Origin: Marsupella aquatica
Lineage: Eukaryota; Plantae; Marchantiophyta
Direction: 5' to 3'
DNA length: 64,000 nucleotides
NCBI GenBank assembly: GCA_973895155.1
Contig: OZ316893.1
Coordinates: 25,780,798 to 25,844,797, forward strand
Shown: piece after piece, positions 15,414 to 64,000 of the stretch
Layout of the letters: each line of letters begins with the position of its first letter
Numbering within the stretch: position 1 is the stretch's first letter
Made by a program: the position numbers and the translations under genes
Notes under the pieces: generated by a model
The model's input: the letters and a program-made list of their open reading frames with translations, nothing else
Told to the model about the DNA's origin: nothing
The model's database searches: none

Positions 15414-18400
15414 ATGGAATGCAAAAAGTCCACCGGTAGTATGGTGCTAGTGACATGGGTACTTGCGTCGCTGCTACTACAGGCCAGTACATTGTGTTTA
15501 GCATGGAACACAGACGGCCACGAAATAATTTGCAATCTGGCCCGTGTAAGTAGCTCATCTGCAGAAGGAATTCTCACCCCCCATTTTCCCTACTGCCTAT
15601 TCCAGTCCCGCTCTGGTCCCGCATTCCCCTTGTTTTTGTCATTTTTTTCTTTCCTCCGGATGTCTTTAGGAGTCCAACACCAATGTGAATGGCACTTTCC
15701 TCAATTTTGTAGGCGAAGTTGAGAAAGATTGGCTGCCGAGGACGCCCTTACCTGTCATTTCGCTTGAAAGCTAGTCTTCACCCCCTACAACTGCCAGTCT
15801 CATGTTCTTCCCCTCATCTCAGCGATGTGTCCTGCAAGTCATACGTACTATGGTTCTCTTTCTATGTGTTGCCTTAGTCTTTAGAGTAAAATCAATAGTG
15901 GTCTTGTCCATTGCTGGCGAATGGTCTTGTGCCATCCACAGTTGGGCATCCTAAGGGTGCAGCTGATCCCGGTCTCGATCAACCGGTACTGTTGGTAGAT
16001 TGCAAGTAGCAATCTTGCTTTTTACCTTGGAACTGTCCGTGAATAAGAGGGCGAATTTCTTTAACATTATTGCAGGAAAATACATCCTAGTAGCCTCGTT
16101 TCACTAAAGAGTGCTTCTCCTCGTAAATGTAAGTTGTCCTGCTCTGTACGAAAGTAAACGTTTCTCAGCTCGTAACCCCATCCGCCCCGACTGTCAGCTG
16201 TACGGGTGATACCCATTTCAGCTATAGCAAAACTCAAGCTCAATCTTCTTGAGAAGTTGATGAGTCGGTCAGGGTTCCTCATGCCACGGTTCTTTTGTCA
16301 TTTCGTTCCTCTTGTAACTGAGAAACACTTAGTGCAACTCTGGTGATTCTCTGCCTGAGTTCGATCGACAGCAATGTATGTTATTCTGGCTTGGTTTTGA
16401 AAGGTTTCTTACTCAATTAGTCAGCATAAGAGAATGATGCTCCGTTACAACTTGGGCGATTTTACTCACAGCGTTTGGGTGTCTCTGCATTGCAGCCCAT
16501 GATAACACCGGCAACCATGGCACAAGTGAACAACCTCATGAATGGCCAATTCCAACACAATTTCTCTACTTTATGTACATGGGGAGAAGAGGTGCAGTAT
16601 CTTCCGCGGTACAGCTGGAGCCCCCCTTTGCACTCCGTTAACACTCCTGACAAGCTCTGCTCGTACAACTACTCGCGTAAGTCTCTGCTCTCCTACTCAC
16701 TACCTGTTGGGATGGGAGCTATACTAATACATACGGAAAAGTTCTCGAGATCTAAAATCTTAAACCCTCACCCGAACTGAAGCTCAATGGTCTCCGAAAT
16801 CCAATCTCGTTCAAGAGATTCATTGGAGATCTGCATCATTGGAATCTCAAAGAGAGGAGCGATGTAGAAATCGTGATCCCTGAAGGGCCGACGCTCACAT
16901 CCGGAAAGGCGGACACTTCGCGCTTCTACTTGGCGATCTGTTTCGGTTCCGCAAGCATGTTCATGACTTGAGGCATTTTGGTGCAGCATCAGCTATTAAT
17001 TTGGGAAGGAGCCATACCATTATTGCTTTGCTACACTTGCTCCAACAATGAACGAATGCTTCTCAAAAATGAAGAATCCATAAGCAATTGGATTTCTACT
17101 GGAGGACACACGTCTAGCTATGTAGAAAATCTTGATTGCGGATGGCGACGATTGGTATCATCTTTGGATTGGAATTCGGATCCGTCGAGTTGTTTGGCAG
17201 GATGAGTTTTAGGATCCGCACCCGAGAAAATGACGGCCGTGAATTTTCTTTAACTTATCTAAGGGGCCAGTCGTTTCAGGAGTGGGACTGTCTCATTACT
17301 CACACATGCATGAAACCACGTTCGTCAATGATTGGAAACCAATTTCTAATTGGTATCGTTTTGCCACTTACAGGCGATTGCGTTGGTGTCTTCGGAGAGC
17401 CGAACTTTTGCGCGTCCGGAGCCATTAAAAATTACACGTCGCAACTGGTTGATCCCAGTTCTCCATGTATGTTGGCCACACTAGTTTTAGCATGGTGATC
17501 TATTTAACCGTTGTGCTTGCCTCATCATTTGAGGCTTCGAAACCTCCATCAAAACTGTATCTTGCCACTTCCCATATTTCCCCTTCCAGTTCCACGTTTC
17601 ACCATTGTATGTCAAACAAGGGATTCATGCTCATTGCTGTGCAGATAACAAAACGGAGGCACTGCTGTTTATGGCGAATATTATGGGCGACATCCACCAG
17701 GTAATTGTTCTACATGGGTGTATTACTATTTTAGTACGTGCACTGGCCTTTTAACCTCTACTTGAGGTTGGAACCAAGCATCAGTATGTAATAAAGAAAT
17801 CTTTAATTACATGGAGGAGAGGATTCGGTTACTACCTCGATTCCTGGAAGGAACAGGTAGGAAGCAATTTGAGTCAATTCCGAGTTTCAAACACTTGAGC
17901 TTGCTAACGCATGCATCTTTGCTTCATGTACTACAGCCATTGCGTTGTGGATTTATTGGAGATGGCGGTGGTTCGTTTATTGACGTTTGGTGGATGAACA
18001 CTCAGAACGGCAGCATGACCGATCTATTTTCTGTAAGACTTGTAACCGAGAACCACATTTTCACGATAGCTAGTCAGTCCCTAGCTGTTATTGCCGATGA
18101 AAGATCATAATTAGTCTAATTCTATAATTGTTGGAACCGCATGAATGTACAGTGCTTTGCTCTAGGCTATTCAATGTTCTTTGTGGTGTTTTGATACTGC
18201 ACTTCAAATGTTTACATGGGCCCTATCACTTTTCGGTGATACTTCTGGAATGATCCCTACATGAAAACTAAAAGAAACTCAAATGTGTAGGGCATTGCCC
18301 CTGCACTTGATGACTGTGCTGTTCTAATTCCCAAGTTTGATTGATTGACTTTAACCCGGATCTAAATGTGTTCGCAGGTGTGGGATTCTCATATAGTCCA

Positions 18401-19654
18401 TGAAGCATTTGAGCGTTCCTTCAATCAGAGCAATCCAACATACAATGAGACATTAGTAGACATACTTGGGAACATGTCGCTCGCAATATACTCAGGCCTT
18501 ACGGTGAGTATGCTTTAGAGGTTGTCGTTGGCTATGTTGGTCATAACGTGAGCTAGTTGGAGCTTCTCAACCTTCCTAAGTCTCCTGTAGTATAAACCTC
18601 TGATATGGTTATTTTACCAACAGGCTGCAGATGTCACAGCATGGAGTCCATGCCCAGCAGGCCCTGCCTCATGCCCTGACATGTAAGTGTTCTCCTAACA
18701 CTTCACAAACGGCATTCTCGGTGCAAAGTTTCACACCCATCCATGAGGGTTAGTTGATATTTGATAGGTGTAATATCTGGGTGATCGTATAAACGACTGA
18801 TATTTTCCAGCATTCACTTGATCCTCCTTTTCTCTTGGGGGATTATGTAGGTTGCCCCATTCCCTGTCAAGACGTAAGACAACATACGCATCCAACCTTG
18901 ATATGGAATGTACTCGGTTGCGAGCCTCCTAGAAACTGAGAAAAATTGAGAATGCAAGTCGAAGTATGAGGGCCTGCTGACGATTGTGATGTCTTCAATG
19001 TGCTACTTCCAGGTATGCTACAGAAAGCATTCAACTGGCATGTCAATATGCTTATGCTGGTGTAACTGCAAACCAGATTCTTACAGGTGTGCTACAGACC
19101 AGATTCTTACAGACATTGTAGTAGTGTCTTGGTTAAGTCCGTACTCATTTTTAAACTCCAAAAATGAACTGAAATTAAACCCATGTCATTCCTTGTTTAC
19201 ATGATGTTGCCCATAATTTTGTCTGGATTCCATGTCGAACCCAGTCTGAAGTCACACTGACCAGCATCTGGAAATATTCGGTCATTTACAGTTTGATCAT
19301 TTACATCTGCGATGTCCATTGGCAGATCCATACTTTAACACAGGACTGCCAATAGTGGAGAAAAGATTGCTTCAAGCGGGTGTGAGACTGGCAGCAACTC
19401 TGAATAGGATATTTGATCCTACTTATGTATCACCCCCATTGGCTCCAGCTCCTGGAACACCAGTTCCGACACCATCACTTCCTCCAGTACCAGTTCCTTC
19501 AGCACCACTGAATGCCTCAGCACCTACTACAGCACCTGCTCCAACAGTTGCTCCCGGAGCACCTGCCCCTACAGTATCTGTTCCTACAGTACCAGCTCCA
19601 AATGCCGCAGTACTTGGGACACCAATGCTTACTCCGATCCCATCAATGGGCTAA
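15414..19654 (+). CDS. Secreted S1/P1 nuclease family (ENDO/BFN-like) protein with substituted Zn ligands and a Pro-rich C-terminal tail, about 381 aa, 9 exons
   Basis: Exons 15414-15545, 16496-16676, 17374-17466, 17645-17700, 17937-18032, 18378-18503, 18624-18682, 19013-19086, 19326-19654; all GT-AG, 1146 nt, no stops. Signal peptide then WNTDGH. Family motifs WSPPLHSVNTPD, CASGAIKNYTSQL, TEALLF...GDIHQPL, VWDS, YATESIQLACQYAY, PIVEKRLLQAGVRLAATLNRIF. Confidence 0.92.
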
Positions 19655-38645: not shown

Positions 38646-39265
38646 CAAAGGCACACCCCCACTCCCAGCCCAACGCCGGCTAGAGGAGGTTAGAGAGCTG
38701 TTTCCATGACAATTGCCTACCGCTGTGTGCCTGTGTTGTCATGCCCATCATAGGGGGTGCCAATGGAGTCCGGTAATTTCCATATCAAAATGTGACAACA
38801 TACCCATGTCATTCCTATAAATTCAATTTTTTTTCTTTAAATCAATGAAAGTTATTTATCGCACACCAAATATTGTCACATTTTGATGTGCAATTATTGT
38901 AATTGGTCCCCATTCTGGTGAGGTAGATTGTACAAATATGGCAATTCCAAGAATGTTGTTTGATGGTACTACGCTCGGGACTACCCTTACTCCATTTGTA
39001 GATAAAGGCATGCCCCAAGTCCCCAACCCAATGCCAGTTAGTGGGGTGAGAGACCTGTTTCCATGACAATTGCCAGCCCCTGTGTTGTCACACCCACAAT
39101 AGGGGGTGGCAATGCTGGTGAGGTAGATTGAACAAAGACGACAATTCCGAAAATGCTATTGGATGGTACTCCCTGTAGTCCCTAGTCAATAAAGGCACCC
39201 CCAAGTCCCCAAACCAATGCCAGCTTGTGGGGGTGAGAGGGTTGTTTCCATGCCAAATGCCAACC
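38646..39265. repeat. Three-copy degenerate direct repeat upstream of DDI1
   Basis: AAAGGCA..CCCC.A.TCCC.A.CCAA.GCC.G.T.G..GG.G..AGAG...TGTTTCCATG.CAA.TGCC at about 38647, 39003 and 39190. Confidence 0.7.
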
Positions 39266-40019
39266 CCTATCTAACCACTAAGGGTTGAAGCAGCCAAAAT
39301 ATGACTAGTTGGTCAAACTGACCAAAACTTCTAGGAGCACACTTTGAGAGGTACATTTTCATGTTTAACCCGGATTTTTGGTGAGATCTTTGGGATTTAT
39401 TTACAGACCCCCATGGGAGGTGCTTTGCAGATTCCTTGGCTCCACATGCAACCACATGAGCATTCTCTGTCACAAACAAGGAAATCTATGTTTGTGGCAA
39501 CACATTTGAGGCCGCCAAAAATGGTGGAACTTGGAAACCATAAAAATGCCATTAACAACAAAGAAAAGGTAAGAAAATACCACCAATAAACCATTGAATT
39601 TTTTAGATCAACGGATGGCTTCCAAGGAGAAACCCTGAGAAAATGGGTGTAAACCTTGGAAACAACAATTGAACCACAAAACAACTAACATTGTCTCAGT
39701 CTTCAATTTACACATTCCATGTGCCAGTTCTAGCAGTACCTCATTTTACTGTACATTTGATGCAGCAGGACTCCTGGCAGAACCCACACACATTGTGCAG
39801 GCCCGTGCCAAATGCAGACCATGTGAAAACCCCCTATGAACTTGTGAAACCTAGAGCCTCAAACCTATTGGGAGAAAATGCCAAAACGTTGAATGAGGTT
39901 TACTAAAAGGAAGGCATTCACACATCAATGTCTTCAATTCACAATTACCCTAATCTTCCAGTTTGCACAATGCGGTAATCAGCGGTCGTCCCAACAACGA
40001 CAATGATGACCAGCAATAA

Positions 40020-41840: not shown

Positions 41841-41866
41841 GGTTGAGGAAAAATGGACTTTAGTTC

Positions 41867-42165
41867 TGTTGGTGTTGGAGACAATCTCTAATATGAGAGA
41901 ACTGTATTCAGAACGTAGCAAAGGGCGAAATAAGTAGAGCCGGAGAGGGCCAGACTTGGCGGAAGATCAACGGATCTCCAGATGAAGCTAAGATCTAACA
42001 GCTATGTAAGCTACCGTAAAGTATGCACAACAGACATGAGACTTGTTCCGTCTGATCTATGAAATCTGTGTCTAATCCTAATCTGATCTACAAGTAATCT
42101 AAATCACAGGATTACTGTCTGGTTCTGTCGCTACCTAACTTGCGAGTACTCAGTAAGTTCCAACA
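41867..42165 (-). repeat. 3' LTR of the copia element
   Basis: 299 bp, adjacent to the PPT, about 97% identical to 47274-47572. Confidence 0.93.
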
Positions 42166-42233
42166 CCCCCTCTCGAGGAAGTAAGGGAGGATAGAACCTG
42201 ACACGTTAAGCTTACTAATGAATAGATCAAAAA

Positions 42234-42710
42234 ATGTCGGTCCGCCAAGCTCTACTGATAGGCGCAAGTGTAAGCGTGGAAGTATTGGGGCAGGTCTTTC
42301 GAGTGTTGCATGTTGGTTGCAGCAAGTTGGCAGTGTGGATTCGTGCGCTGCAGTTGGTTGACGAGGAGGTGAAGAATGAGCCGATATTGGGTGTTGTTGG
42401 ACCATCATCACCTGTGATTCTAGGTGGATCTTTGCCGCAGCCCCATGATGACAATTTTGGAGCGATGGTGCTTGCACCTCGGTCCCCCTCTGGAACAGAA
42501 ATTCGGACGGCTAGTGATATCGGTGAGGGGCTGGTGATGCATAAGCGCCATTTTTATGCTGTCGCAGTTGGTCATCAGCCAGGAATTTACAATTCATGGG
42601 CGGATGCAAACAGGCAGGTTAGCGGATACCCTGGAAATTGTCATCAAGCTTTTTGAACTCGGCAAGAGGCAGAATTTTTCCTTGCTTGACACAGAGCAAG
42701 CGGAGTGTAG
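42234..42710 (+). pseudogene. Antisense accessory ORF inside the copia element with a C-terminal RNase H1 N-terminal hybrid-binding (Cauli_VI/viroplasmin-like) domain
   Basis: ATG at 42234, open to 42656. KRHFYAVAVGHQPGIYNSWADANRQVSGYPGNCHQAF*TRQEAEFFL matches the RNase H1 HBD consensus FYAV..G..PG.Y.SW..C..QV.G.P....K.F.T..EA..F. The two internal TGAs (42654, 42687) can be explained as CGA>TGA. Confidence 0.8.
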
Positions 42711-42733
42711 GCGAGACAACTTGAGAGTAGTGG

Positions 42734-45700
42734 TTATGTCTTGAATTGTGCCGATGAAGCAGATTTTACCCCAATAAACTGTCGATGTTTTTCAAATTTG
42801 ATCCGAGAAAGAGGTTTCGTTAGTAGATCTGCTGGATTGTCTGTGGTGTTGATATATGACAGCGTAATTTCCCCTTCCAACACCCTTTCACAGATGAAGT
42901 GGTGTTTCCCTTCTATGTGTTTCGTCCGTGCATGGAAAATAGGATTTTTGGCCAATTTAATGGAACCTTGATTATCACAATGCAAATGAACGTCTAATAA
43001 AGTTGGAAGAGAGGCATGAGCAAGGTCAGTATGTATGGAAGGGTTGGAAAGACCGATGGGTACCGTGAGGATGGAGTTGTGGTTGAGTTCCAGGAGTAGC
43101 TGGCGTAGATGAACTGCTTCCTTGGCCCCTTCAGAGAGCGCTTTGTACTCAGCCTCCGTGGTGCTATCAGAAATGGTAGATTGGAGCTTGCTAGACCACA
43201 AAATAGGACCAGTGGAGAGTTGAATTAAGTATGCTCCTCGGGAGCGACGTGTATCAGTACAACCAAGGAAGTTGGCGTCAGTGAATCCTTGGAGGAGTGT
43301 TTTGGTGGAACGTTGAAAATGAATACCAAAATCTGTGGTGCCCTTTAAGTAGCGTAAAATATGTTTCACAGACTCCCAGTGGCGTTGTTGTGGGTTAGAC
43401 ATGTATCGACTGACGACACCCACAGCGTATGCAATGTCTGGGCGAGTATGCATGAGAAAGATTAGCTTGCCGACTGCATGACAATATTCAGTCACGTCAA
43501 TAGAAGGTGTGCCAGTTTGGCTTGTGAGAATGTGTCCCTCAGGAATTGGAACGTGCTCGGTTCGGGAGTCATTCATACCAAATTCCTGAACCAGTGCTTC
43601 ACAGTAAGACGTTTGGTGTAGAATAAGACCCGTCGAAGTGCGGCAGAACTCAATACCAAGATATTTCTGAGCCAGACCAAGATCCTTCATGTGGTAACGT
43701 TGTTGGAGATGAGCCTTGACTGATGTGATTTGGTCGGGATTACTTCCAGTGATTAGCAAGTCGTCGACATAGAGCATTAGAATAGTAATCTGGCCATCTT
43801 GATGGCGGAAATAGAGGTTGGGATCAGCCAGGCTTCGAGTCCATCCTGTGGTTTGGAGATGTGAATCTATTTCCTCGTACCAGGCACGAGGAGATTGTTT
43901 TAGACCATACAGGGACCTTCGAAGCTTGCATACCATGGATTCTTTGCCGAGAACTTCAAAACCCTGTGGCTGCTACATGTAGATTTCTTCTGTGAGTGTA
44001 CCATTGAGAAAGGCTGTAACTACATCCATATGGTGTAGTTCCCATCCGTTTGAGATAGCTAGAGCAATAATGGTGCGTAGAGTAGACCATTTTACTACAG
44101 GCGCAAAGGTCTCATTATAATCAATGCCATACTTCTGCTCAAATCCCCTGGCAACCAGTCTAGCTTTAAGACGAAACCTGGTGGAATCAGGTTTGGTCCG
44201 AAAAACCCATTTTGCCGTAAGAGCCCGACGACCAGCTGGAAGATAAACAAGTTCCCATGTACCCATCTTGGTTAGGGAGGCAATTTCTTCCTGCATAGCC
44301 TTGTTCCAACCTGGATGTTTGAGAGCCTGCTCAATGGAGAGATTTTCACATTCCGGGTTGTGAGACTCAACTAAGAGAGTGCTCATATCATAGCATGCCA
44401 TGGGGGAGGATGATGAGGTCGAAGAGAATGACGAATTGCAGCAGGTCTAGGTGGAGGAAGCACTAGTTGGTCTAAGGCGGCATCGATGGGAGGCACAACA
44501 TCAAGTGGGACTTGTTCAGGGTCAGCAACAGGTACAACATCGAATGGGGCTTCTGCAGGGCCAACAGCTGGAATATTTTCCCCCTCTGGGACGATAGGCC
44601 CGGGAACAACTGGTTGTTGTACGTGGTCTGGAGTGAATAGGAAATCAAAGAGATCGGAAGCAAGAGTGGGAGTAGAGTTGAGCAGTCCCATTTTGTTCTC
44701 ATCAAATGTAACATCTCTAGAAATTATGATACGATTACGGGTAGCATCAAAGCATCGATATGCTTTGGAGTTGTCATCATAGCCCAAGAGTGTAGTGGAA
44801 ATGGCCTTGGGACCAAGTTTAGTCCTCATGGAAGCAAGAATAAGTACGTAGGCCTGACAACCAAGAATGCGAAGATGATTGAGATCGGGCTTTGTACCGT
44901 GGAGAGCTTCATATGGAGTTGTTCGGGACAATGCCTTTGTTTCGGACCGATTTTGAAGATAATTGGCAGCGCGAACGGCCTCAGTCCATAAGGTTGGAGC
45001 GAAGCCAGAACTGATGAGGAGTGTGCGGGCAGCTTCAAGGAGTGTGCGATTTTTCCGCTCCGCAACTCCATTTTGATGTGGAGTGTGTGAAACCGTGAGC
45101 TGTCTTCTGATGCCGTGAGTTTTGCAGAACTCCAGAAATTCAGTGGACATGTATTCGCCTCCACGGTCAAAACAAAGACATCCAATTGTTGTTGAAAATT
45201 GGTTTTCAACCATCGCTTTGAATTGTTTGAAGGTACCAAATTTTTGGCTTTTCTGTGAGAGAAAATATACCCACGTAGACCGAGAAAAATCGTCAATAAG
45301 AGTGAGAATATACTTGGAGGAACTCGGACTTTGAAGGGGACCACATAAATCGGAGTGGACAAGCTGTAGCGGTTGAGATGATCGAGACATCGATTGCTTG
45401 GGAACCTTCTCGCGATGATGCTTGCCCATCACGCAGGGCTCACAGATACGTTTGACCCGAGGAAGGTTGGGAAGACCCGTAACCATGGAGGTCTGAGACA
45501 TGTGGTGAATCATCTGATGATTTACGTGTCCTAGACATTGGTGCCAAAGATGCATTGGATCTTGATGGAAAGCTTGAGCAGTGATCGTTGGGCCGGACTG
45601 GGAGACTTCAATAGCGAGAATTGGTGCAGCCTGTAGTAGGTGTCGGTGTTGTTGCACACGGGAGAGAGAACAAATCGTGGAGACAGCAGGAAGATGTTGT

Positions 45701-47072
45701 CGCAACTTGTAGAGTTTGGTCCTGGGTTCTCGATGGCCCCGCAGGAAGATCTTCCGTGGGTTGTCTTTGTCATACACCAAACATGACTTGGAGTTGAACA
45801 GAACTAAATGACTAGCATCTGTGAGGGACCCAACCGAGAGAAGGTTGCGTTGCAACCCCGGGACATACAAAACCTTAGGAATATTTTTATTCTCATCAAC
45901 AGAAATGCTGCCCTGGCCAGCTACGGTGAGCTTATTGCCACTGGCAGTAACTACAGAACTAGAGCGATTTTTAGTTGCCAATTTGCGAAACACGGTGTTA
46001 TCACTACTCACGTGAGTGGTTGCTCCTGAATCTAAGATCCAAGCAGTAGAGCTATGGCTAGTGTCGACTTCGGTGAAGTTGGCCTCAATTGGTTCACCTT
46101 CATCGGTTGCATAGAAGTCATCGTCTTCAGCATCTGCATTAGCGATTGGAGGGTTAGTTTCCACCATGTTGACCAGTCGGTGATGGCGGTTGGCTTGGAT
46201 ATCTGCAGCTTTAAGCTACAGATCAGCAATCTGCTCTTCGATCTTCTTGAGGTCACAAGCTGCTTCCCAATGGCCAGGCTTGTTGCAGTAGTTGCAGTTG
46301 TCGGGTCTACGTCCACGTCCACGTTCAGCATGAGGGCGAGGATGACGGAAATTCGGATTTGCTCGTGGCTGATAGTGCCTGCCATCGCGGGGGTGAGAGC
46401 GTCCCCTTCCTCTGCCAAAGGTGTGTGTTATGGCCATAGCCTCCTCAGATGTTTCAATTTGTTTCCCCTTCTTCCAGTACTCTTCTGATTGAAGTCGTTC
46501 AATCAGGTTCGAGAATGATGGCTTTGGTGTGCGAGAAAGCTCAGCTCCGAACATTGACACAAACGGGCTCCAGCTGAGTGGCAGTCCTCTGAGTACAATG
46601 TGGATCAGTCTGGTTTCATCGACCTTGGCGTTGATACTTGCTAGGTGTCCAGCAAGTTCGTTGACTGTGTTGATGTAAGCCTCGACTGAGCCACCTTCGC
46701 TCAGCTTGATGCTCTGGAGTTTCTGCTCCAATAGGAGCTGGCGCTGCAAGAGGTCTCCTCCGAACCTTTGCTGAAAATGTTCCCAGCACTTTGTTGGGTC
46801 ATCTGAGTACTTATCGACAGTGGGTAGGAATTTTGGCTTCACTGTAGCTGCCAAAATGGAGATGGCCCTGACTTTCTTCTTCTTGATTTCGGCGGTAGTG
46901 AGATTCGCTCCTCCGTCAACTATGTTGCCATTGGCGTCAGGCTTGACACCGAAGTTGAGCTCTTCGAACAGATCATCCCGCCTCAGGAAGTTCTTAACTA
47001 TAATGGACCAGGTCATGTGATTAGCTGAGCCGTCAAGCTTATCGACTCGTGGAACGTCCTAAGTAGTTCCAT
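42734..47072 (-). pseudogene. Copia gag-pol polyprotein, interrupted
   Basis: Zinc knuckle CNYCNKPGHWEAAC; protease WILDSGATTH; integrase WHQCLGH..CEPC, LVHSDLCGP, DRGGEY, QNGVAERKNRTL; RT KARLVARG, LYGLKQSPRAW, LYVDDLL; RNase H TEAEY, CDNQG, NPADLLTK. Lesions: probable frameshift near 47045 (inferred start MELLRTFHE at 47072), in-frame TAG at 46216-46218 and 43973-43975, frameshift near 44400. Confidence 0.93.
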
Positions 47073-47273
47073 ATTCACCTTCAGATTTAAACAACAACTC
47101 GATCTAAATGACTAAGGAATTCTCACTAAGTCTATACTGATTTGAGTCTATGACTAGCTACGCAGTATCAATAACTCAGGGAAGTTCTCAACCTGATTAC
47201 TATACTACTTCTGCTTCTAAGTGCTAGAGAGTTTAGACGCAGCTAAACTATCAGAGATCCTGCTCTCATACCA

Positions 47274-47572
47274 TGTTGGTGTTGGAGACAATCCCTAATA
47301 TGAGAGAACTGTATTCAGAACGTAGCAGAGGGCGAAATAAGTAGAGCCGGAGAGGGCCAGACTTGGCGGAAGATCAACGGATCTCCAGATGAAGCTAAGA
47401 TCTAACAGCTATGTAAGCTACCCTAAAGTATGCACAACAGACATGAGACTTGTTCCGTCTGATCTATGAAATCTGTGTCTAATCCTAATCTGATCTAAGA
47501 GTAATCTAAATCACAGGATTACTGTCTGGTTCTGTCGCTAACTAACTTGCGAGTAGTCAGTAACTTCCGACA
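47274..47572 (-). repeat. 5' LTR of the copia element
   Basis: 299 bp, adjacent to the PBS. Confidence 0.93.
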
Positions 47573-49074
47573 AGTTCGTGATCACTCTGGTGCATTTGCC
47601 ACTTGGGCAAACGCTGTCAGCGAGCATGGAGTCCGAATTCCGAAGCCTGGAGAGCAGCTACTTTTCAAGCGAGCCATTCACTTACACTGTCTTGTACCGG
47701 AAACCAAGAGAAGAGACAGACCTGTTGAGAATCCGTCAAATTTTTTAACGTTAAAATCAACTGCTGTACTGCCAACATCGTCACACGGGTGAGAGATTTC
47801 TGCTCCTGTACCTGAGTAGACGACACTTGCGTGCACAGAAATCGACGCAATTCCATACGTGCATTCTCTTGAAATGGCAAATTCGACATTCCGCAGAGAT
47901 TGACGCACTTTTTTCATTCTCAGGAGAAACCGGTCACACACTTCGGGCACAGATTCCAGGACGAGAACAGAGATGGAGGTAACAGGAGATACGGTCGGGA
48001 TTCCCGTGTGACGTTTGGGCAATTTCATACTTCTGTCTGCATTGTCCCTGTTCGTGACACAGATATTTGAGTGTTCAATACGACATCCTCTGTACTTGTC
48101 TCTCGTACAAGTGAAAGGCTCCTTCGACTTTTCTAAAGAAAAAACTCCATTCTACACTTGTCGATTTCATGTTGCGGTCCATGTGCCAAGTAATACCCAG
48201 CTACAGGAAGCTGAAATGGTAATAGTAGTATCCACTGTTTGTCATTGATGGTGGGCCTCCGATGCATTTTGGTGTTGTGGTGGTGTTGAGCTCATCTTGG
48301 AAGCCTTGGAATTGTAACATTAGGGAGCAAGACGTGCGCTAAGGACCTGCCAGTTCTTCCGCCTCACCGACCGCAACTTTGATTACGAGCGGCATTCATT
48401 TGATGTTGCGGTAACAAGGCTTTGATTCGAAATGATACCGAAAACTGTCGCAAAAATCACAGACGTTGGGCACTGACTCGTTTTTCCTGTCCGGTACCTT
48501 CTTGCAGGCTGAAACTCGCGTACTTGAAATCGGGTCGTTAGAAGCTTCCACTCTTGTACACCGAGGATCGGGGGTCGGGAATGGTGTGATCTCACTACTC
48601 GTTTTCGCCGGACTAGTTGAGTGAATGGTTTTGCCTTCCCAAGTGTAGGCTTTCACTGACTGCTGTGGTAAAGGAATGCTGGAGCTGTGTGATAATATCA
48701 TATAAAGTCATAATCTACAATCTTGTCTCATCCACACTCGACGTGATCTGGATACTCTGAAGTCTGAACCATGCAAAATCATGTTATGTACTGCCAAATT
48801 TGAAAACCTCACGACTTTAAACTGTTGTGCCTCCGCTCCTCCACATCGCCTAATCATCTACTGTTCACTCACAATCTGCACCCACTGGGAGTAGCCCACT
48901 ACAGTATGATCACTCGACTGAGGTGCTTGCATGTATTGCGCAGCTTCAGTCTTCGAACTCCTGCAACTGATTTAAACTCCGGCCGAGCTCCCGTCGGGGT
49001 TGCTATTGCTATTTGTTTATGTAATTGCCGTTTCCTTACGGTGCCCCTCTAAATTCTTTGGATGTCAAATTGGA

Positions 49075-50024
49075 ATGGGTAAGACCGTCGAGCGTGCCTT
49101 TGGTAGGCAACAAAATGACAGAGCGTACGAGAGAGGCAGAGAATTGAAAGGCAGAGCATTGAGAAGCAGAGCATTGTTGAAAGGCGGAGAGAGCGAGAGA
49201 GAGACAGAGAGCATTGTAGGATTGGTCGATGGTGTTGAGCTGCTCAATCCCGATCTCGATAGAGTTCAGGGAGGCAAAGTGGACGGAGAGGAGGAGGAAA
49301 TTGTCGCCATCATGGTGGAACCGTCGACAGTGGATCCACCTTTGAGCGATCAGTTGGACATTGTGACAGTGGGACTTCCTCGAGATGTGGAGCCTTTCTT
49401 TGAGAGATACCACTTGATTATGGTGCAGGACTGAGATCCGACAAAGGAGATCAAGGTTCCCAAAGGGTTTGTTTATGAGCTCTACAACCGCAACGACATT
49501 TGACCGGATCCTCGGCAAGAAGGCATCGTGCATCTCGTTTAAGGATAGTGTTTGCCGCTGCTTCGGGTTCATGGTCTCCAAGAAGAAATATATCTTCACC
49601 GTAGATGCGATCATTTAGGCTATGGTGTGAAGACCGGTCTGCCATGTCTCTGGCACAGCAAGGCTAGAACCCGTTCGTCAATCTGAAGAAGGAATCCAAC
49701 GGGATCTTCTGGCAGGAGGAGATGATTCCCTTCGTCCAATCTATTGCGCTTCCCAATGAGGTGACGACAATCGAGCAATTTTACATCGAGCTGTCCAAGC
49801 TGGTGAAGGCCAAGCTCGGTGGCGTTGAACCTTATTCACAAAGCTGTCGGATGCTATGGTTACTTGGATCGACGCATGGGGTGAGCTCAACTCGCCTGCC
49901 AGAGCGGCCTAAAGTTTTTGGCCATCAAAGGTCGGCAAGAGAACAATTTGAGATGAGAATGTGCCGTAGCTTTGTAGCTGACGATCTGCTGGAGGAGGAG
50001 TTTCCTCACTGGATGATAGACTGA
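49075..50024 (+). pseudogene. Degenerate coding-like segment of unknown family
   Basis: Protein-like ORF fragments (MGKTVERAFGRQ... to 49434; [11 protein letters not shown]... 49722-50024) separated by stops or shifts. No recognisable domain. Confidence 0.3.
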
Positions 50025-51334: not shown

Positions 51335-52430
51335 AAGTCTATAGACCCAGACTACATTTTGTCTGGAGGGAAAACTCTAGACTCTCACTAGGGACATAAT
51401 TGAAGTTGGATATCTGAGTGAAAAACTAAAACTGGCAGTGAGTTTCCTACCTCTGTCTAGAGGTAAGCCTGAATTTGGGAGTAAAACTAGAGCTGGATGT
51501 ATGGGTGGGAAACAATATATGTACCTCAGTCTGGAGTGAAGCCTGACTTTGGGAGCAAAACTAGAGTTGGATGTATGGGTGGAAAAGGATATACCTCTCT
51601 GTCTGGAGTGAAGCCTCTAGACCTTGACTTTTGGGGCATAACTGGAGATGGATTCCTACCTGTGTCTAGGGTGTGGCTTGACTTTGGGAGCAACTAAAGT
51701 TGGATACATGGGTAACTATTTTCCCCTCTCTGTCTAGAGGGAAGCCTTTAGACCCTGACTTTTGGGGCATAGCCAAAAGATAGATTCCTACCTCTGTCTA
51801 ATGTCAAGCCTAACTTTGGGAGCATAACTGAAGTGGGATATATGGGTGGAAAACCAACCTGACTTTGGGGCATAACTAAAGATAGATTCCTACCTCTGTC
51901 TAATGTCAAGCCTAACTTTGGGAGCATAACTGAAGTAGGATATATGGGTGGAAAACCATTTTCATACCTCTGGCTAGAGTGAAGCCTCTAGACCCTCACT
52001 TCGGGGGCATAATTGGAGATGGACATATGAATAGAAAACTGGGGAAAGGTGAGCCTCTGAAGGTGAATCTTGAAAATGATGAAGCATATTTGTACTCACC
52101 TTATTTATGTTCATAGTATAGGTACTCAGACTACAACTCATCACATCTTTGGGGGCATTACTGGAGATGGATACATGAGTGGAAAACCAGGATTGGGGAA
52201 AGGTGAGTCTGTGAAGGTGAATATCTGAAAATGATGAAGCATATTAGGATGTACTCACCTTATTTATGTTCAAAGTATGAGCACTCAGACTAGTACTCAT
52301 CACATCTGGAACTGCAAGTGAATCTGAGGGTGTGAATCTCTGGAAATGATGAAGCATATTTGAATGTACTCCTCTCTATTTATGCTCAAATATGGGCACT
52401 CATACTAGTACTCAACACAACTGGAAGTGC
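51335..52430. repeat. Compound degenerate tandem-repeat array
   Basis: Recurrent TTCCTACCTCTGTCT...AAGCCT..ACTTTGGGAGCA.AACT..AG.TGGAT.TATGGGTGGAAAA units (51335-52050), then GAAAATGATGAAGCATAT...GTACTCACCTTATTTATG...CACTCAGACTA units at about 52072, 52228 and 52343. Confidence 0.8.
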
Positions 52431-55400
52431 AAGAGAATCTGAGGGTGGCTTTACTAGAATTCAGGGCACTCGTGACTTTCTTTCACCAGAGCAATGTGAA
52501 GGCTACTTTCTGTCCTACAGATAGGCCTCTTAGGACCAAAACTCTTTTTGAAATGAAAAGGCCACCTTTTGAGTTTGTGAAAATTTTAGACAAATTTCTA
52601 AACATTCCACATCCACATTTGCTTGGACCCACTACTTGCCATGTAAGATTAGTAGACACTGTACACCCCAAGTGTGCATTTTGCCCTACTCTCACTGGAA
52701 AATTTTGGCCTGAGTTTCAGATCCCCCAAGTCTTGCCGTGTCTCTCACACTCCAACTACCTAGGATGAGCCACTAGCCCAGGAGTCCCCTACTAGCAAGG
52801 AACTAAATTCCTGCTAAGCTGCAATACCATATTCATCAACTTGCTTGAGTCCCTCCCATTCTCTACTTTGCCTTGATTGATTGTTGCAATGTTACACATT
52901 CAATATGATATGCAGAGCAATATGCAAAGAAGGCCAAAGGGGCTTCATGGAGCTACGTGGCAAAACATCTCCTGGTTGCCACAATGAACTGTGTTTATAA
53001 GGTTATGCAGTGTAGTTCTTCTGCCAAGATCAGCACATAGGGAGAACCAGGACAAGAATAATCAAGATGGCACCAGTGTGACAACCTCATAACACCTCAA
53101 TTTTGGCAGTGGCTGCAAAGAAAAAAAAACCTTCTTTTGCAAAGCAAAACATTTCAGTCCAGAAAGGGAAGATAAACACGAAAGATGGGTCAAATCTTAT
53201 TAATAGGACATGTCCCTTCAGTTGACGGATCAGAGAAGGATTTAATATTGGCTTTTTCAGGGGTACCTTCATGGATATTTTGTCTCATGGCGGCCCATAC
53301 TATGCTTGCGAATGTAGATGTCGGTATATGTGTTCCACCCCCCAGTCTCAAGTAGTTCTCCTGGTAGTTATTTCCTTTAGAAACTGGTTGATATATAAGT
53401 ATGTAGGAGTAAGCTTGGATGGAGATCTCCACCCAAAGGTTCAAGTTTTGATGGATCACTAAAAGTTTATTGTGCAAAAATAAAGATTTATCTGACTTTA
53501 AAGCTATATTTGACAGAGACAGTTCACACAAACCCACAAACTCACCACCTTGCTCTTCCTATTTCAAATCACCTTCATAAGCATAATGAAAGGTATGTAG
53601 GATCTTGAGAAATATATATTTGCTTGTACAATCATCAGCAAGTGAACTGGTGTAGGAGTGATGACTTCCTCACGCCCCAAGTTGCTAAACAGGGTGAAGG
53701 TATCACAACACTGTAATTGCATTTCAGGGAGGTATTTGCTTCATGGGACCCCAAAATTACTTGATAGGACCCCTAAAGTTTTAGGTGTGTTGATTCAAGG
53801 TCAATCAATGGTCTGGATCACTCAGGGGTCCTATCAAGTAAAGTTTTTCATAATGGGGTCCCATCAAGCAAATACCTGGGCAAATACCTCCATTTCAGGT
53901 TGACGGTTTCTAAGAAACTCATTTAAAACAAATACTTAGGTCGCACTCATAGACATGGCCCACCTGCGGTTTCCTTTTAGCTGTAAAGAAAACCACCTGC
54001 AAGTTTTTGAAGTGTCAAGTCTTTTGTTTCCCAAGGGCTTTGGTGAACCTCACCGTGGGATGGTGTTGTTGCACAAGTTGCTCGACTGATGAAACTTCAA
54101 CTCAGAATCTCACTTGCCGCAATGAAAATTGCTACTCTCTTACTTGGGATGACTAAATGTACAGCAAACTCTTCATCGAATCCGAGCATGGTTGATATTT
54201 TTCAGGATGTCAAGACATCCACCTCATGCCTTAGTTCACCTTTTGTGAGCAATGGCTTAGTGAAAACGGGCACCATGGAATGAAGGGCCCAAGTGAACAG
54301 GCAGCAAGAAATTAGTCTCTACAAATGCTCGCCCAGAGAGTTTCGTTTGGTTATCGCATTATATTGTAGATAAATAAAGAGCCCCAACAAAGTCAATTAA
54401 ATTTAACCTAAAGGTTCTGTTAATTTGTCGTATCCAAAACCATGTGAGCCCCACATAAAGTGGCTCGCTATGATATCTTCAATGATTTGAAATTCTGACA
54501 TCCACTAAGTTCACTAGTTCAGGTCTTCAATCTAATGTCAGGTCTTGGCGGATGGAGGCATGGAGCCATGGACGATGGCAGCAATCATTATAAATGATTG
54601 ATTGATTTCGTCAGACAGAACAACCTAAAATAATTATTAACATAACAGTATTTCCACCCCCAAAAAACTGTAAAAGTATTTCACAATTTAGGGATAATTC
54701 CATCCAAGTTTCAACCCTTCCATACTGAGAAAAACATATACGGCACATACTTAAAATAGTTAGATACGGAGTAAGTAGGCAAAGCGTTCTATAAGTCGTA
54801 GCTCACAGTCTAAATTAATCTTTAGACGGACTAGCCACCGATTTCATTAACTAAAATGATTACCGTAATCCTGTCCTTCCTAATAAATCAGCGCTGATTC
54901 TGCGCCTCGAGTATCGGTGCAGTAAATAATTCTGACAGAGTTGTCGGGGGCGCCGATTCTGCAGATCGACGGCGAAGGCTGGTGGGACAGTTCCGTCAAT
55001 ACAAGTAACTTCGCATTGATCGGTGCTAGTGAACGGGATAATTACCTCGATCCTTAAGTACGAAAATTTATTGTTTTTCATAAATAAAATAATTATATCT
55101 CAATTCGTTTTTATATCTCAATTCGTTTCTCCCAACGATAAGCTGGGATGAAGCTTCATGCAAACCTTTAAGCTCGGACAGTAGTTCAGCACCCTCTTTG
55201 TATGGGTGGAAGCGAAGTGACTGAAAATGTTTGTTATTCAAGTGAAAGTGCTCCGTTCCCAAAGATCATATGAGAGAAGAATGTTCTGAGCTTTCAGTTC
55301 TAGTATTTGCACAGTTTGTTTTTGGGTTTGTTTTGAAATGGGGGATTTGAAGGTCCCATGGACCATTGCATGACAAGATGCTCGGATTGACCACTGCAAC

Positions 55401-59892: not shown

Positions 59893-62800
59893 TTGAGCAC
59901 CAAGCATGGCCGAAAACTCCTTGCTGATTTGTTGGAGCCAGACCTGCCTTGGTTGAGTTCAAAACTCAACACCTCTAGTCCCGCCAAGAAACCACGGAAA
60001 TGCAACAGCAGTAGTGGTAAGAAGACGGAAGGTGCATCATGGATTCGATTGCGATCGACTGCCAAGCTAAGATGGCAAATGACGAAGCAGCGCAAAAAGA
60101 ATCAACTGAAGGTGGACTATTGCGTTTCAGTTCTGGGGAAGAAGGAGCCATCGGTTCCATCGAAATTGGTGCTTGTTTGTCTCATTAAGGTCTACCACAT
60201 TCGTCCGAAGGAGAAGAGTGGCTGGGGCTGCTTGGTAGACGATAGTTTCTTTGAGATGTTACAGGAGCATGTCAGCTCTGCTCCTATCACCAATGTTGTG
60301 TATCACTGGGCCGAGCATGTGCAGCAATTGCCTGCTTAGTTGCCTGTGGATCGAAAGTTGCATGCTTTGCAGGTTGATTGTCGACTATTACAGGTACTTT
60401 TTCCGCTGAGAGATGTCCCTGCCCAGTCTGTCCAACCTTCAGCAGGTGAGGAGAGTAGAGAACTCATTGTTGCAGACACCTTGGAGTTTTTGAGGAAGAA
60501 AAGGGAAAGTCTGTTGTGGAAAGTCGGAGCAAAAGAAATCGATTTTGACCATGCCTATCCAGACTATGTGAAGTGGAAAAAAGAGCAGAAGCATCTGTCA
60601 ATTGCCACAGCCGGTCGGAATTGTGTGAAAGATTACACAGGTGATGGCATGTCACAAGAAGAAGCAGAGGCAGCGGTACGTAACACAATCATTTTACTTG
60701 TCTTTGCATTGTTGTGTATACTTCGCGCACAATGTTTACACGAGTTTTCATATTGCAGGCTGGAGTTCACGAAGTGTGGGTTGATACCTCAGATGAGGAG
60801 GGGTACGAGCCCACCCTTGACAAGTGGGGATTAGATTATCATGAGTCCTCTGATGAAGAAGACGCAGCAGAGGTATAGTTCCTCTTCCCATTCTGCCAAT
60901 GATTTTTTCTGAATCTGCAGAGTTTGACAACATTGACCGAAATGTCTACGAAACTTCAGGTTCCTTTGAATGACGAAGCTAAAGTCAAAGAATCAGGGAA
61001 GAAAGGAAAGCCACGCAGGAAGCCAAGCGAACCCAAGAAGCAGCCTCCACAGAAAATTACGCCTCCTGTTGACACTCAGGAAGCCGATGAGGTAAAATTT
61101 GCACTTCCAATGTAATTATCCCATTTGTATACCGTGATATCAATGTATGCACGAGTGTATGCACGATGGTTTAGTGCTCTTAGCCCGAGTATTGCTTTTT
61201 CAGGTTCCTCCCAACAAAGGAGCCAAAGCCAACCAATCAAAGCGGAAAACAAAAAGAACCAAGAAATCTGTAGAGCCAGCACCGAACGGCAACACCACCC
61301 TTCCCGTAGATTCTCAGCAAGCTGACCAGGTAACGTTTACAGATGAAAGTTCTTTGCAACATGTGTAAACAGTGTGGAGAATGTTTCCTGTTTTATCAAC
61401 ACTGCAAGTTCAAGAGTAGGACATTATGTTGAATACCATGATGTTAATGTATACTCACTGTTTGAATGCGCCTGTACCCCGAGTATTGCATTTTAGGTTC
61501 CTGAATCCCATGAAGGACCTACACCCGAACAATCTGTAGAGCCATCACCAAACGGCAACACCACCCTTCCCGTAGATTCTCAGCAAGCTGACCAGGTAAT
61601 GTTTACAGATGAAAGTTCTTTGCAACATCTGTAAATAGTGTGGAGAACGTTTCCTGTTTTATCAACACTGCAAGTTCAAGAGTAGGACACCAATGTTATG
61701 TTGTATACCATGATGTTAATGTGTACTTACTGTTTGAATGTGCCTGTACTCCGAGTACTGCATTTTAGGTTCCTGAATCCCATGAAGGACCTACACCCGA
61801 ACAATCTGTAGAGCCACCACCGAACGGCAACACCACCCTTCCCGTAGATTCTCAGCAAGCTGACCAGGTAACGTTTACAGATGAAAGTTCTTTGCAACAT
61901 CTGTAAACAGTGTGGAGAACGTTTCCTGTTTTATCAACACTGCAAGTTCAAGAGTAGGACACCAATGTTATGTTGTATACCATGATGTTAATGTATACTT
62001 ACTATTTGAATGTGCTTGTACTCCGAGTACTGCATTTTAGGTTCCTGAATCCCATGAGGGACCTACACCCGAACAATCTAAGAGGAAATCAAAGAGAACC
62101 AAGAAATCTGTACAACCACATAAGCCCGCGCCTGAGGTAAGTGTGTTTTCAATAGGCCAAGGAGGAACATTCCAGGGTAGACAGTGGTAAAAATGTATTC
62201 TATGTGTACTTATTTGATTTAAACATGCAATCACCTTAGTTTGCAATGATAGGGACCAAAGGAAGGAGAGCAAGCAACGGCACCCCCGGAGACAGAAAAA
62301 AGTGAACCTAGATGTTCAAAGACGAAGCAAACAACTGCTCCCACCAAAGAGAAAATTGCCCAACCAAAAAGAAAAACCAGAACTAAAACCAAGGTAACTA
62401 CAAATCATTGTGTACTATGTGGCCATATTGTATAGGGACTAAACACATGATTCGCTTGATACTGATTTCAGCCTTACAATTGCAGAATTCATGTAAACAA
62501 GTCCAGGATGTCAATGCACAACCAGCACCAGAGGGAGGCAACACTATTGAAACTCAGGGTATTGCCCTTCCACCGAATGTGTCTGCAATCCCATCAGGAG
62601 AGGTGACTGCACCGGTAGGGAGCACACCTTCTGTAATTGACTTTGGTGGCATGATTGATTGGTAAGATGTGTTTCTTTGCTGATTGCATTCATATGTGAA
62701 TTTGCAGGAGTACCATAAACCACCTGATGTGCAACCAGACCCATATGCAAGTAGACGTAGGAGAAAATTGACAGTTCGTGGGCCATTGGGCAAGGCGCAA

Positions 62801-63159: not shown

Positions 63160-63585
63160 TTCTCTGACTTTACGACAAAGACGCCCCACTGTCAAATCCT
63201 TCCCACTAACTAAGACGCCCCCCGCCGAAGCCCAAATGGACAAAACCTACAGAATTTGAACACAGAAAACCCTTTTTCATGTATACGATTTGGACGTTGT
63301 ATTCAGATTTCACACTTGGAAAAAAAATTGTCCCTCCGACTTTACGAACACGCCCTCCGCCGAAGCCTGCCCAAATGGACAAAACCTATGGAGTTTCAAC
63401 ATAGAAATACCTTTTTCATGTATACACTTTGGACATTGTATTCAGATTTCACACTTGGAAAAAAAAATTTGTCCCTCCGACTTTACGAACACGCCCTCCG
63501 CCGAAGCCTGCCCAAATGGACAAAACCTATGGAGTTTCAACATAGAAATACATTTTTCATGTATACACTTTGCACGTTGTATTCA
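63160..63585. repeat. ~141-bp tandem repeat, two near-identical copies plus one degenerate copy
   Basis: CTCCGACTTTACGAACACGCCCTCCGCCGAAGCCTGCCCAAATGGACAAAACCTATGGAGTTTCAACATAGAAATAC at about 63334 and 63475. Confidence 0.88.
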
Positions 63586-64000
63586 TAATTCACAGTTACA
63601 AAAAAATTCATTCACTTGAACTTTACAAAGACAGTCGGGCCTAAATGGAAAAAAAATGCCATATTCAACACTTTAATAATCATACAGCACATGCACCATG
63701 GAAGGCGTACTCAGACCTAACAATTGCAAATAAAAGGCTTCACTCCTCATTGGATGGAATACAACATCCACTTTGTAACAATTTGAACTCATTCAAGGTA
63801 GTGTTTAGGTCCATGCACAAATGTGCCCTACTACCATCTAACTTCCCAATATAGTGAATAGTAGACTGTGATGTATATGTCTATTCTGTGATATCTACTT
63901 CATGAGGTAGCCCAAAATAAGGGCAATTATCAGCAGCTTCTTCAGCAAGTTCAGTGATGCGCCGTGCCCACTCATAATCCAAGGAGTTTTGAATGCGTGG

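Follow-up and report, generated by a model that had tools for sequence, protein, structure and literature searches.

The window, the whole stretch of 64,000 nucleotides of Marsupella aquatica contig OZ316893.1 that was analysed, carries a complete Ty1/copia element on its minus strand (41867-47572, ~5.7 kb), present as a single copy within these 64 kb. In the interval that separates pol from the PPT of this element, an ORF in the opposite orientation encodes a hybrid-binding domain (HBD). The features of the locus are, in order of position:

41862-41866, no strand: TSD AGTTC, left copy, with the same five bases at 47573-47577
41867-42165, minus: 3' LTR, 299 bp, one of the repeat pair and candidate source of an antisense promoter
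42158-42192, minus: block surrounding the PPT, matched by divergent families, with a predicted hairpin across the PPT/U3 junction
42166-42174, minus: PPT, GAGAGGGGG
42234-42710, plus: antisense accessory ORF between pol and PPT, 158 codons with two internal stops
42237-42377, plus: N-terminal amphipathic helix, approximate span, predicted on residues 2-48 of the homologue P0002
42378-42551, plus: acidic linker, poorly conserved and predicted to be disordered (low pLDDT in P0002)
42552-42680, plus: HBD (PF01693), residues 107-149, from Pfam, profile comparison and Foldseek of P0002
42654-42656, plus: first stop, within the HBD, a sense codon in the sister contig
42687-42689, plus: second stop, just past the HBD, a sense codon in the sister contig
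42734-43972, minus: 3' part of RT and RNase H (PF07727), with the pol stop at 42734-42736
42773-42778, plus: AATAAA, candidate signal for polyadenylation of an antisense transcript, possibly a chance occurrence, 63 bp past the ORF stop
43976-44446, minus: 5' part of RT, cut off from the 3' part by a stop at 43973-43975
44386-46215, minus: protease, GAG-pre-integrase, integrase and SH3-like domain (PF22936, PF13976, PF00665, PF25597)
46219-47058, minus: gag of copia type with zinc knuckle (PF14223), stop at 46216-46218
47262-47273, minus: primer-binding site (PBS), beginning with TGG, directly after the LTR
47274-47572, minus: 5' LTR, 299 bp
47573-47577, no strand: TSD AGTTC, right copy

The element belongs to Ty1/copia by its Pfam order (gag, protease, integrase, RT, RNase H, with an RT of the RVT_2 type) and by its TG...CA LTR pair, 5-bp TSD, PBS and PPT. 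The two LTRs of 299 bp are ~97% alike, with 9 differences and a K2P distance of 0.031. Simple patterns detected no TATA-like motif on either LTR strand. The gag-pol gene is dead: it is interrupted by stops at 46216-46218 and 43973-43975 and by a frameshift between 44386 and 44446. In the element's RNase H, the four acidic catalytic motifs read intact. The hairpin predicted for the PPT-surrounding block encloses the PPT/U3 junction, with a fold z score of -1.33 that is not significant; loose contig ends fall at 42158 and 42191-42192 in four out of four sequencing runs (42154 being listed for run X1). The PBS is presumably of the tRNA-Met 3'-end type, with one mismatch to the consensus. The Bryco lineage was rejected on this feature, as its PBS complements half of tRNA-Met (criterion from the available text of PMC6317226). 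A SIRE element was also rejected, the longest sense open stretch from PPT to pol being 112 codons against the at least 250 needed, and so was a sense-strand gene in the pol-PPT interval. Nor is the antisense interval an in-frame extension of pol, which stops at 42734-42736.

Elsewhere in the window, the plus strand bears pieces of an S1/P1 nuclease gene (PF02265) at 16430-19651 and, at 49668-50021, part of a gene for a reversibly glycosylated polypeptide (PF03214, E 9e-13), the latter pointing to a plant host. Three dispersed copies of 34-66-bp repeats lie left of the element (38655-39272). Nested arrays with repeats of 74, 102, 115 and 131 bp occupy 51435-52447, and tandem arrays are present at 61265-62079 (272 bp, 3 copies, 95%) and 63230-63606 (141 bp, 2.7 copies, 91%).

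The accessory ORF begins with an ATG at 42234, 68 bp from the end of the 3' LTR (42165), and terminates with a TAG at 42708-42710. With X in place of the two internal stops, the frame gives a protein of 158 aa. PF01693 matches this protein over profile positions 2-44 of 44 with an E value of 5e-18 and 65.5 bits; the curated Pfam cut-off is 21 bits, so the match is not due to chance. When the frame is read up to the first stop only, the match covers positions 2-35 (E 9.9e-14). The domain therefore continues past this stop, as the original prediction had proposed for the pattern beyond the first TGA, and the positions that it gave for the ATG, both stops, the TAG, the PPT and the pol stop all hold. 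The ORF ends nine residues beyond the HBD and lacks the RNase H1 catalytic domain. An RNase H1 enzyme was rejected, no catalytic RNase H domain being present in the same chain. Both stops belong to this copy, because the sister contig has sense codons at the two positions. With two lesions in 474 bp, their density is higher in the ORF than in gag-pol (three in ~4.3 kb), but not significantly so (binomial P 0.08).

An out-of-frame ATG at 42218, 16 bp upstream of the main ATG, opens a 47-codon ORF (42218-42361) that runs into the first part of the accessory ORF, whose own ATG sits in an A-rich context. This context and the AATAAA motif would fit an antisense mRNA, both as candidate signals.

Open homologues of the complete protein were found. 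P0002 (156 aa), the one match among 81 candidates of a word-indexed search, is 48% identical over 97% of the length, and P0128 is 41% identical over 99%. An exhaustive profile search, considered over the best 150 of 4400 matches, and a second indexed search with 65 matches gave P0128 together with P0175, P0193, P0248, P0282, P0284, P0286 and P0287. In these nine protein clusters beyond the window copy, a stand-alone C-terminal HBD follows a linker, and none contains a catalytic domain. PF01693 is the sole Pfam domain of the family proteins scanned (11/11). The open frames of the family span 119-163 codons with the architecture kept; P0175 is frameshifted within the HBD. A single C-terminal HBD with at least 50 residues upstream is found in 14 of the 221 HBD-bearing proteins of the collection searched, namely the family's 13 sequences (counting near-copies) and an ORF of a caulimovirid.

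A scan for the HBD motif gave one match in the window and none in the viral contigs or the metagenome contigs, and a search with the family alignment retrieved 6 viral loci and 80 of 273 metagenome loci. Most of these 86 loci are RNase H genes of microbes in which the HBD is N-terminal. No copia gag or pol was detected by tblastn in the 86 loci, and the window RT-RNase H had no match in the viral contigs. One locus (L001:60-593) lies on a caulimovirid-like contig with movement and coat proteins; its 177-aa ORF ends in an HBD and has a gross layout like that of the copia accessory ORF. Other HBD-ending ORFs lacking a catalytic domain occur at L003, L068 and L053, one of them in a 47-kb viral contig.

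The AlphaFold2 model of P0002, built from a 10-row alignment, consists of a helix (residues 2-48), a linker (47-103) and then the HBD, with pLDDT values of 84-95 for residues 1-40 and below 50 for residues 47-103. Foldseek superimposed this model on the human HBD-hybrid complex 3bsu with an rmsd of 0.6 Å and a TM score of 0.92 by target. The family profile retrieved three sequences in all from the PDB, 1qhk (E 2.2e-12), 3bsu (E 5.5e-10) and 6vrd. These matches, together with PF01693, bear out the identity first proposed for the domain. As judged from the alignment, the helix and the HBD are more strongly conserved than the linker, and conservation follows the predicted structure. Identities to P0002 and P0128 are 20/40 and 16/40 in the helix, 18/63 and 11/63 in the linker, and 35/47 and 34/47 in the HBD; the distant P0193 and P0248 share 33/47 and 27/47 residues in the HBD and 5/63 and 6/63 in the linker. 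Most members have an amphipathic N-terminal helix, with a 19-residue hydropathy of 1.3-2.2, which by calculation is hydrophobic enough for a membrane in some of them. P0286 has no N-terminal hydrophobic helix (hydropathy 0.7). Homodimer prediction for the helix gave a score of 0.03, compared with a mark of 0.32.

In the human HBD, W43 is needed for hybrid binding, which is abolished by its loss, and either K59A or K60A cuts hybrid affinity ~10-fold (available text of PMC6846478). The equivalent of W43 is kept in 9/9 members read at the motif. The human F58-K59-K60 reads H-Q-A in the window copy. Across the nine members, position 59 is Q in five and K or R in four, and position 60 is always A, G or S and never K. 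The same letters occur in other HBD motifs (Q59 in 25, A60 in 12 and H58 in 34 of 204). The net charge of the HBD, from +2 to +7, is positive in 10/10 members, and extra arginines are located ahead of strand 1 and within the GRR loop. Since the tryptophan is kept, the letters at the other positions fall within the range of the 204 motifs and arginines have been added, the protein likely binds duplexes. The affinity or the specificity of its HBD is possibly shifted.

The duplex may be dsRNA, in which case the protein would be a silencing suppressor that coats the sense/antisense dsRNA of the element against Dicer. A single 45-residue domain binds duplexes weakly unless it is multimerised, which speaks against such a coat. 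The HBD motif does bind dsRNA as well as hybrids in vitro (Cerritelli 1998, as cited in the available text of PMC5902531), convergent antisense transcription would itself yield dsRNA (available text of PMC7264820), and the extra arginines before strand 1 and in the GRR loop are compatible with this role. However, CaMV P6 can suppress RNAi without its dsR domain, the homologue of the HBD (available text of PMC5902531). This result weakens the counter-silencing option of the original prediction, and we consider suppression by dsRNA binding quite improbable.

The comparison with caulimoviruses leads to a further explanation, host manipulation of the P6/TAV type, where the HBD would be a protein-interaction module, for instance for TOR activation or for translation control, and the helix would serve self-association or nuclear export. 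Copia gag-pol is one ORF for which a reinitiation factor is not needed, and this counts against the idea, as does the profile comparison with the L001 ORF, which aligns the HBD alone (56 columns). Moreover, the HBD tree (53 columns), poorly resolved with 2/55 branches starred, does not group L001 with the family. The order is nevertheless the same in CaMV P6, where an NES and the P6-P6 domain at the N-terminus are followed by a variable region and the dsR/HBD, and the dsR/HBD motif of P6 binds and activates TOR (available text of PMC5902531). The hybrid-contacting lysine pair of the human HBD is not kept here, and the caulimovirid contig has its own stand-alone 177-aa ORF ending in an HBD. A role of the P6 type is thus conceivable although unlikely. 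Like the copia ORF, caulimovirus P6/TAV (viroplasmin) and the L001 ORF do provide a reverse-transcribing element with an HBD that has its own coding frame and no nuclease, and they show the succession of helix, variable region and HBD. They differ in that the L001 ORF, the only caulimovirid one compared, has no detectable homology outside the HBD, and in that the ORF here is antisense in an LTR element. It is presumably also much shorter than caulimovirus P6.

For the nearest sister copy of the ORF, 17 of 27 differences are listed, and a hand count of these gave 3 in stop codons, 4 synonymous and 10 non-synonymous changes, the latter including conserved G, V, G and T residues of the HBD. To judge from these substitutions, the nearest sister copy is decaying neutrally. 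Its pattern is what two dead copies give and therefore does not support selection. The original prediction called for testing other copies for an open ORF and a dN/dS below 1; the sister has sense codons at both stop positions, but it is itself decayed and gave no sign of such a ratio. In a divergent contig, 60 loose bases flanking one piece contain 18 whole codons, 13 of which keep their residue, seven of these with a synonymous change (hand count in one contig, a small sample). The signal of selection would come only from the distant families and from the conservation of the protein.

Two stops in the window copy, the neutral decay of its nearest sister and the frameshifted HBD of P0175 are what would be expected if the ORF were a passenger, an old captured fragment of host RNase H1 without function. 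On the other hand, frames are open across the clusters, HBDs share 27-35/47 residues where linkers share 5-18/63, divergent contigs show synonymous changes, and the ORF is probably present in a subclade whose pol is 53% identical. DNA under no constraint would have lost its open frame across such a distance, so that a mere passenger appears very improbable.

The linkage of the ORF to copia pol was followed in contigs from four sequencing runs of two studies, possibly including the source of the window itself. An identical copy of 42155-43300, with zero differences, is present in runs labelled organism A and organism B. The two labels probably stand for one species or very close ones; therefore these copies are not independent support. 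A 1141-bp contig of run X3 aligns through LTR, ORF and pol with 134 differences and 28 gaps. A 975-bp contig of run X4 matches the HBD over 53 bases (contig positions 14-66) and pol over 224 (168-391, with 48 differences), with the orientation of the window and a similar spacing. The HBD-pol joint of a third family, with 32 bases on the HBD side, occurs in both X3 and X4. A 5050-bp contig of X1 links PPT, HBD and pol and was left uncounted, its 27 HBD bases being below the 31-base bar. Related elements with an HBD joined to pol in the same orientation extend down to 79% pol DNA identity. Four other joints connect the PPT block to pol, and the stretch separating the two shows no match at 80%; some relatives may therefore lack the ORF. 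Together, the homologous clusters and the HBD-pol contigs of related families agree with the stand-alone accessory ORF put forward in the original prediction and not with a one-off capture.

At greater distance, P0175 and the pol protein P0008 (77% identical to the window) both derive from 1775-bp Logan contigs, and P0286 and the pol protein P0007 (53%) both derive from 2904-bp Logan contigs. When compared with 14 family contigs, equal sizes were found for 2/19 pol contigs of the lineage and 0/63 other pol contigs (below 10 kb), with a jitter P of ~0.002. The pairing of ORF and pol in these two cases is circumstantial. Among the nine homologue clusters, these two are tied to pol, by equal contig size only, and seven have no tie.

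The best named relative of the window RT-RNase H is a protein of the liverwort Calypogeia fissa (51%), at rank 20 of the 120 listed, which makes a liverwort or another non-seed plant the likely host. In a quick RT tree made from 65 of 121 rows, the clade of the window has 15 rows (SH-aLRT 91), among them the Calypogeia fissa protein P0023; P0344, another pol protein of this liverwort, is in the clade as well. The RT phylogeny envisaged for placing the lineage thus provided a clade but no named REXdb lineage. P0007, 53% identical to the window pol, is positioned in a different subclade of the same clade, so that the ORF is probably old; its presence in that subclade is probable from the contig pairing. 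The RNase H domain of the element contains an insertion of ~20-25 residues before the CDN motif (window 43000-43110, minus strand). In the 104 of 121 rows where it was measured, the gap between the EAEY-like motif and CDN is 48-57 residues in 14, 29-32 in 89 and 37 in one. All carriers of the insertion fall in the one 15-row clade with the Calypogeia fissa protein. The insertion could be a marker of the unnamed lineage or a docking site. We are highly confident that the ORF is a real accessory gene of a Ty1/copia lineage, and this lineage probably belongs to liverworts.

Antisense ORFs with no assigned function have been described between pol and the 3' LTR of Grande, RIRE2, Retand, PvRetro13 and Boty (available text of PMC7264820 and PMC11963269). 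The ORF described here resembles the aORF-3R/eORF-3'R of the Ty3/gypsy elements Retand, Ogre, Grande and RIRE2 in its position, its antisense orientation, its maintenance across families and the accessory role proposed for it (same sources, as far as available). Unlike the gypsy/Tat aORFs, which lie in long 3' regions and encode TRP28, PMD or SMC domains with no known biochemistry, it has 120-165 codons, lies in a compact copia element and encodes a domain of known activity. A Retand-type aORF-3R was rejected on the copia domain order and on the occurrence of PF01693 only, with no TRP28. The survey of Neumann 2019 (REXdb) counted extra ORFs only if they had at least 250 codons, and in its available text the only copia elements with antisense 3' ORFs are 1% of SIRE, PF01693 is missing from the eORF domain table and the main text does not mention Marchantia (PMC6317226). 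The env-like eORF-3'F of SIRE is unlike the ORF here, being a sense ORF of at least 250 codons in elements that average 9.9 kb (available text of PMC6317226).

The HBD is related in sequence and fold to that of eukaryotic and bacterial RNase H1 with an N-terminal HBD (3bsu, 1qhk), with W43 kept. It differs from them by being C-terminal and alone, with no catalytic domain, and by not keeping F58-K59-K60. The capture of host RNase H parts by retroelements has parallels in the aRH of Tat, Chronos, Archon and plant L1 (available text of PMC10508981 and PMC5348765). In those cases it was the catalytic domain that entered a gypsy or LINE pol, and the native RH decayed (same sources, available parts), whereas here only the binding domain was taken, it is antisense and the native motifs are intact. 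In the openly available literature that was searched, no copia element with this domain was found, including in the available text of bioRxiv 10.1101/572842 and PMC12885004. An antisense HBD ORF in copia is apparently undescribed, so the supposition that the architecture is uncatalogued stands.

The reading that we prefer, with a confidence falling somewhat short of even, is that the protein acts on the RNA:cDNA hybrids of its own element, most plausibly by shielding them. The antisense mRNA would start in or near the 3' LTR and end within the antisense of the 3' end of RNase H. The N-terminal amphipathic helix would anchor or cluster the protein, on the particle, on a membrane or through self-association, and the HBD would coat the RNA:cDNA hybrids formed during reverse transcription of the element. 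Lacking a nuclease, it would compete with host RNase H, and the RT-linked RNase H of the element would still make the programmed cuts. In yeast, Ty1 cDNA hybrids and mobility are kept lower by host RNase H and rise when it is lost (available text of PMC4214602). Shielding is favoured because the protein has no nuclease, the native RNase H motifs are intact and yeast RNase H restricts Ty1. Reverse-transcription hybrids form in the particle and are perhaps only partly reachable by host RNase H, and the need for a shield would therefore be weaker. The equivalents of K59 and K60, which are not kept, and the neutral decay of the nearest sister copy also count against action on hybrids, as do the lesion density of the ORF, the four PPT-pol joints that may lack it and the service of the domain in TOR binding by CaMV P6.

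A nuclease-free HBD could block the RNase H of the element as well as that of the host. It might therefore have the opposite effect and limit the element, binding R-loops at element loci in the nucleus or sequestering hybrids, so that transposition is lowered and copy number controlled. The antisense placement, which uncouples the ORF from gag-pol expression, would suit such a function. The family looks low-copy, with few contigs per run, although contig depth is not equal to copy number. We judge self-limitation to be slightly less probable than silencing suppression, if not as improbable as a passenger.

Returning to the shielding of hybrids, a fuller scenario can be drawn, which we regard as speculative and on balance doubtful. 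An undescribed copia lineage of non-seed plants would have carried an antisense HBD gene as a counter-defence from a time before its pol proteins had diverged to ~53% identity. The gene would guard hybrids from host RNase H, or else its product would be one half of a split RNase H1, free to dock on the RNase H insertion, and in either case it would have converged on caulimovirus P6.

Plant LTR retrotransposons have for decades been known to carry additional antisense ORFs, nearly all of them in gypsy elements and none with a function assigned to it; the present one is in copia. Because its 45-residue domain has solved structures, known contacts, simple assays and intact homologues, the role of such ORFs becomes directly testable. 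Surveys that apply a 250-codon cut-off and cover few non-seed plants miss ORFs of this kind. The finding bears on whether retrotransposons fight restriction by host RNase H and, if the scenario is true, this ORF would be the first among the antisense accessory ORFs of plants to have its biochemical activity defined.
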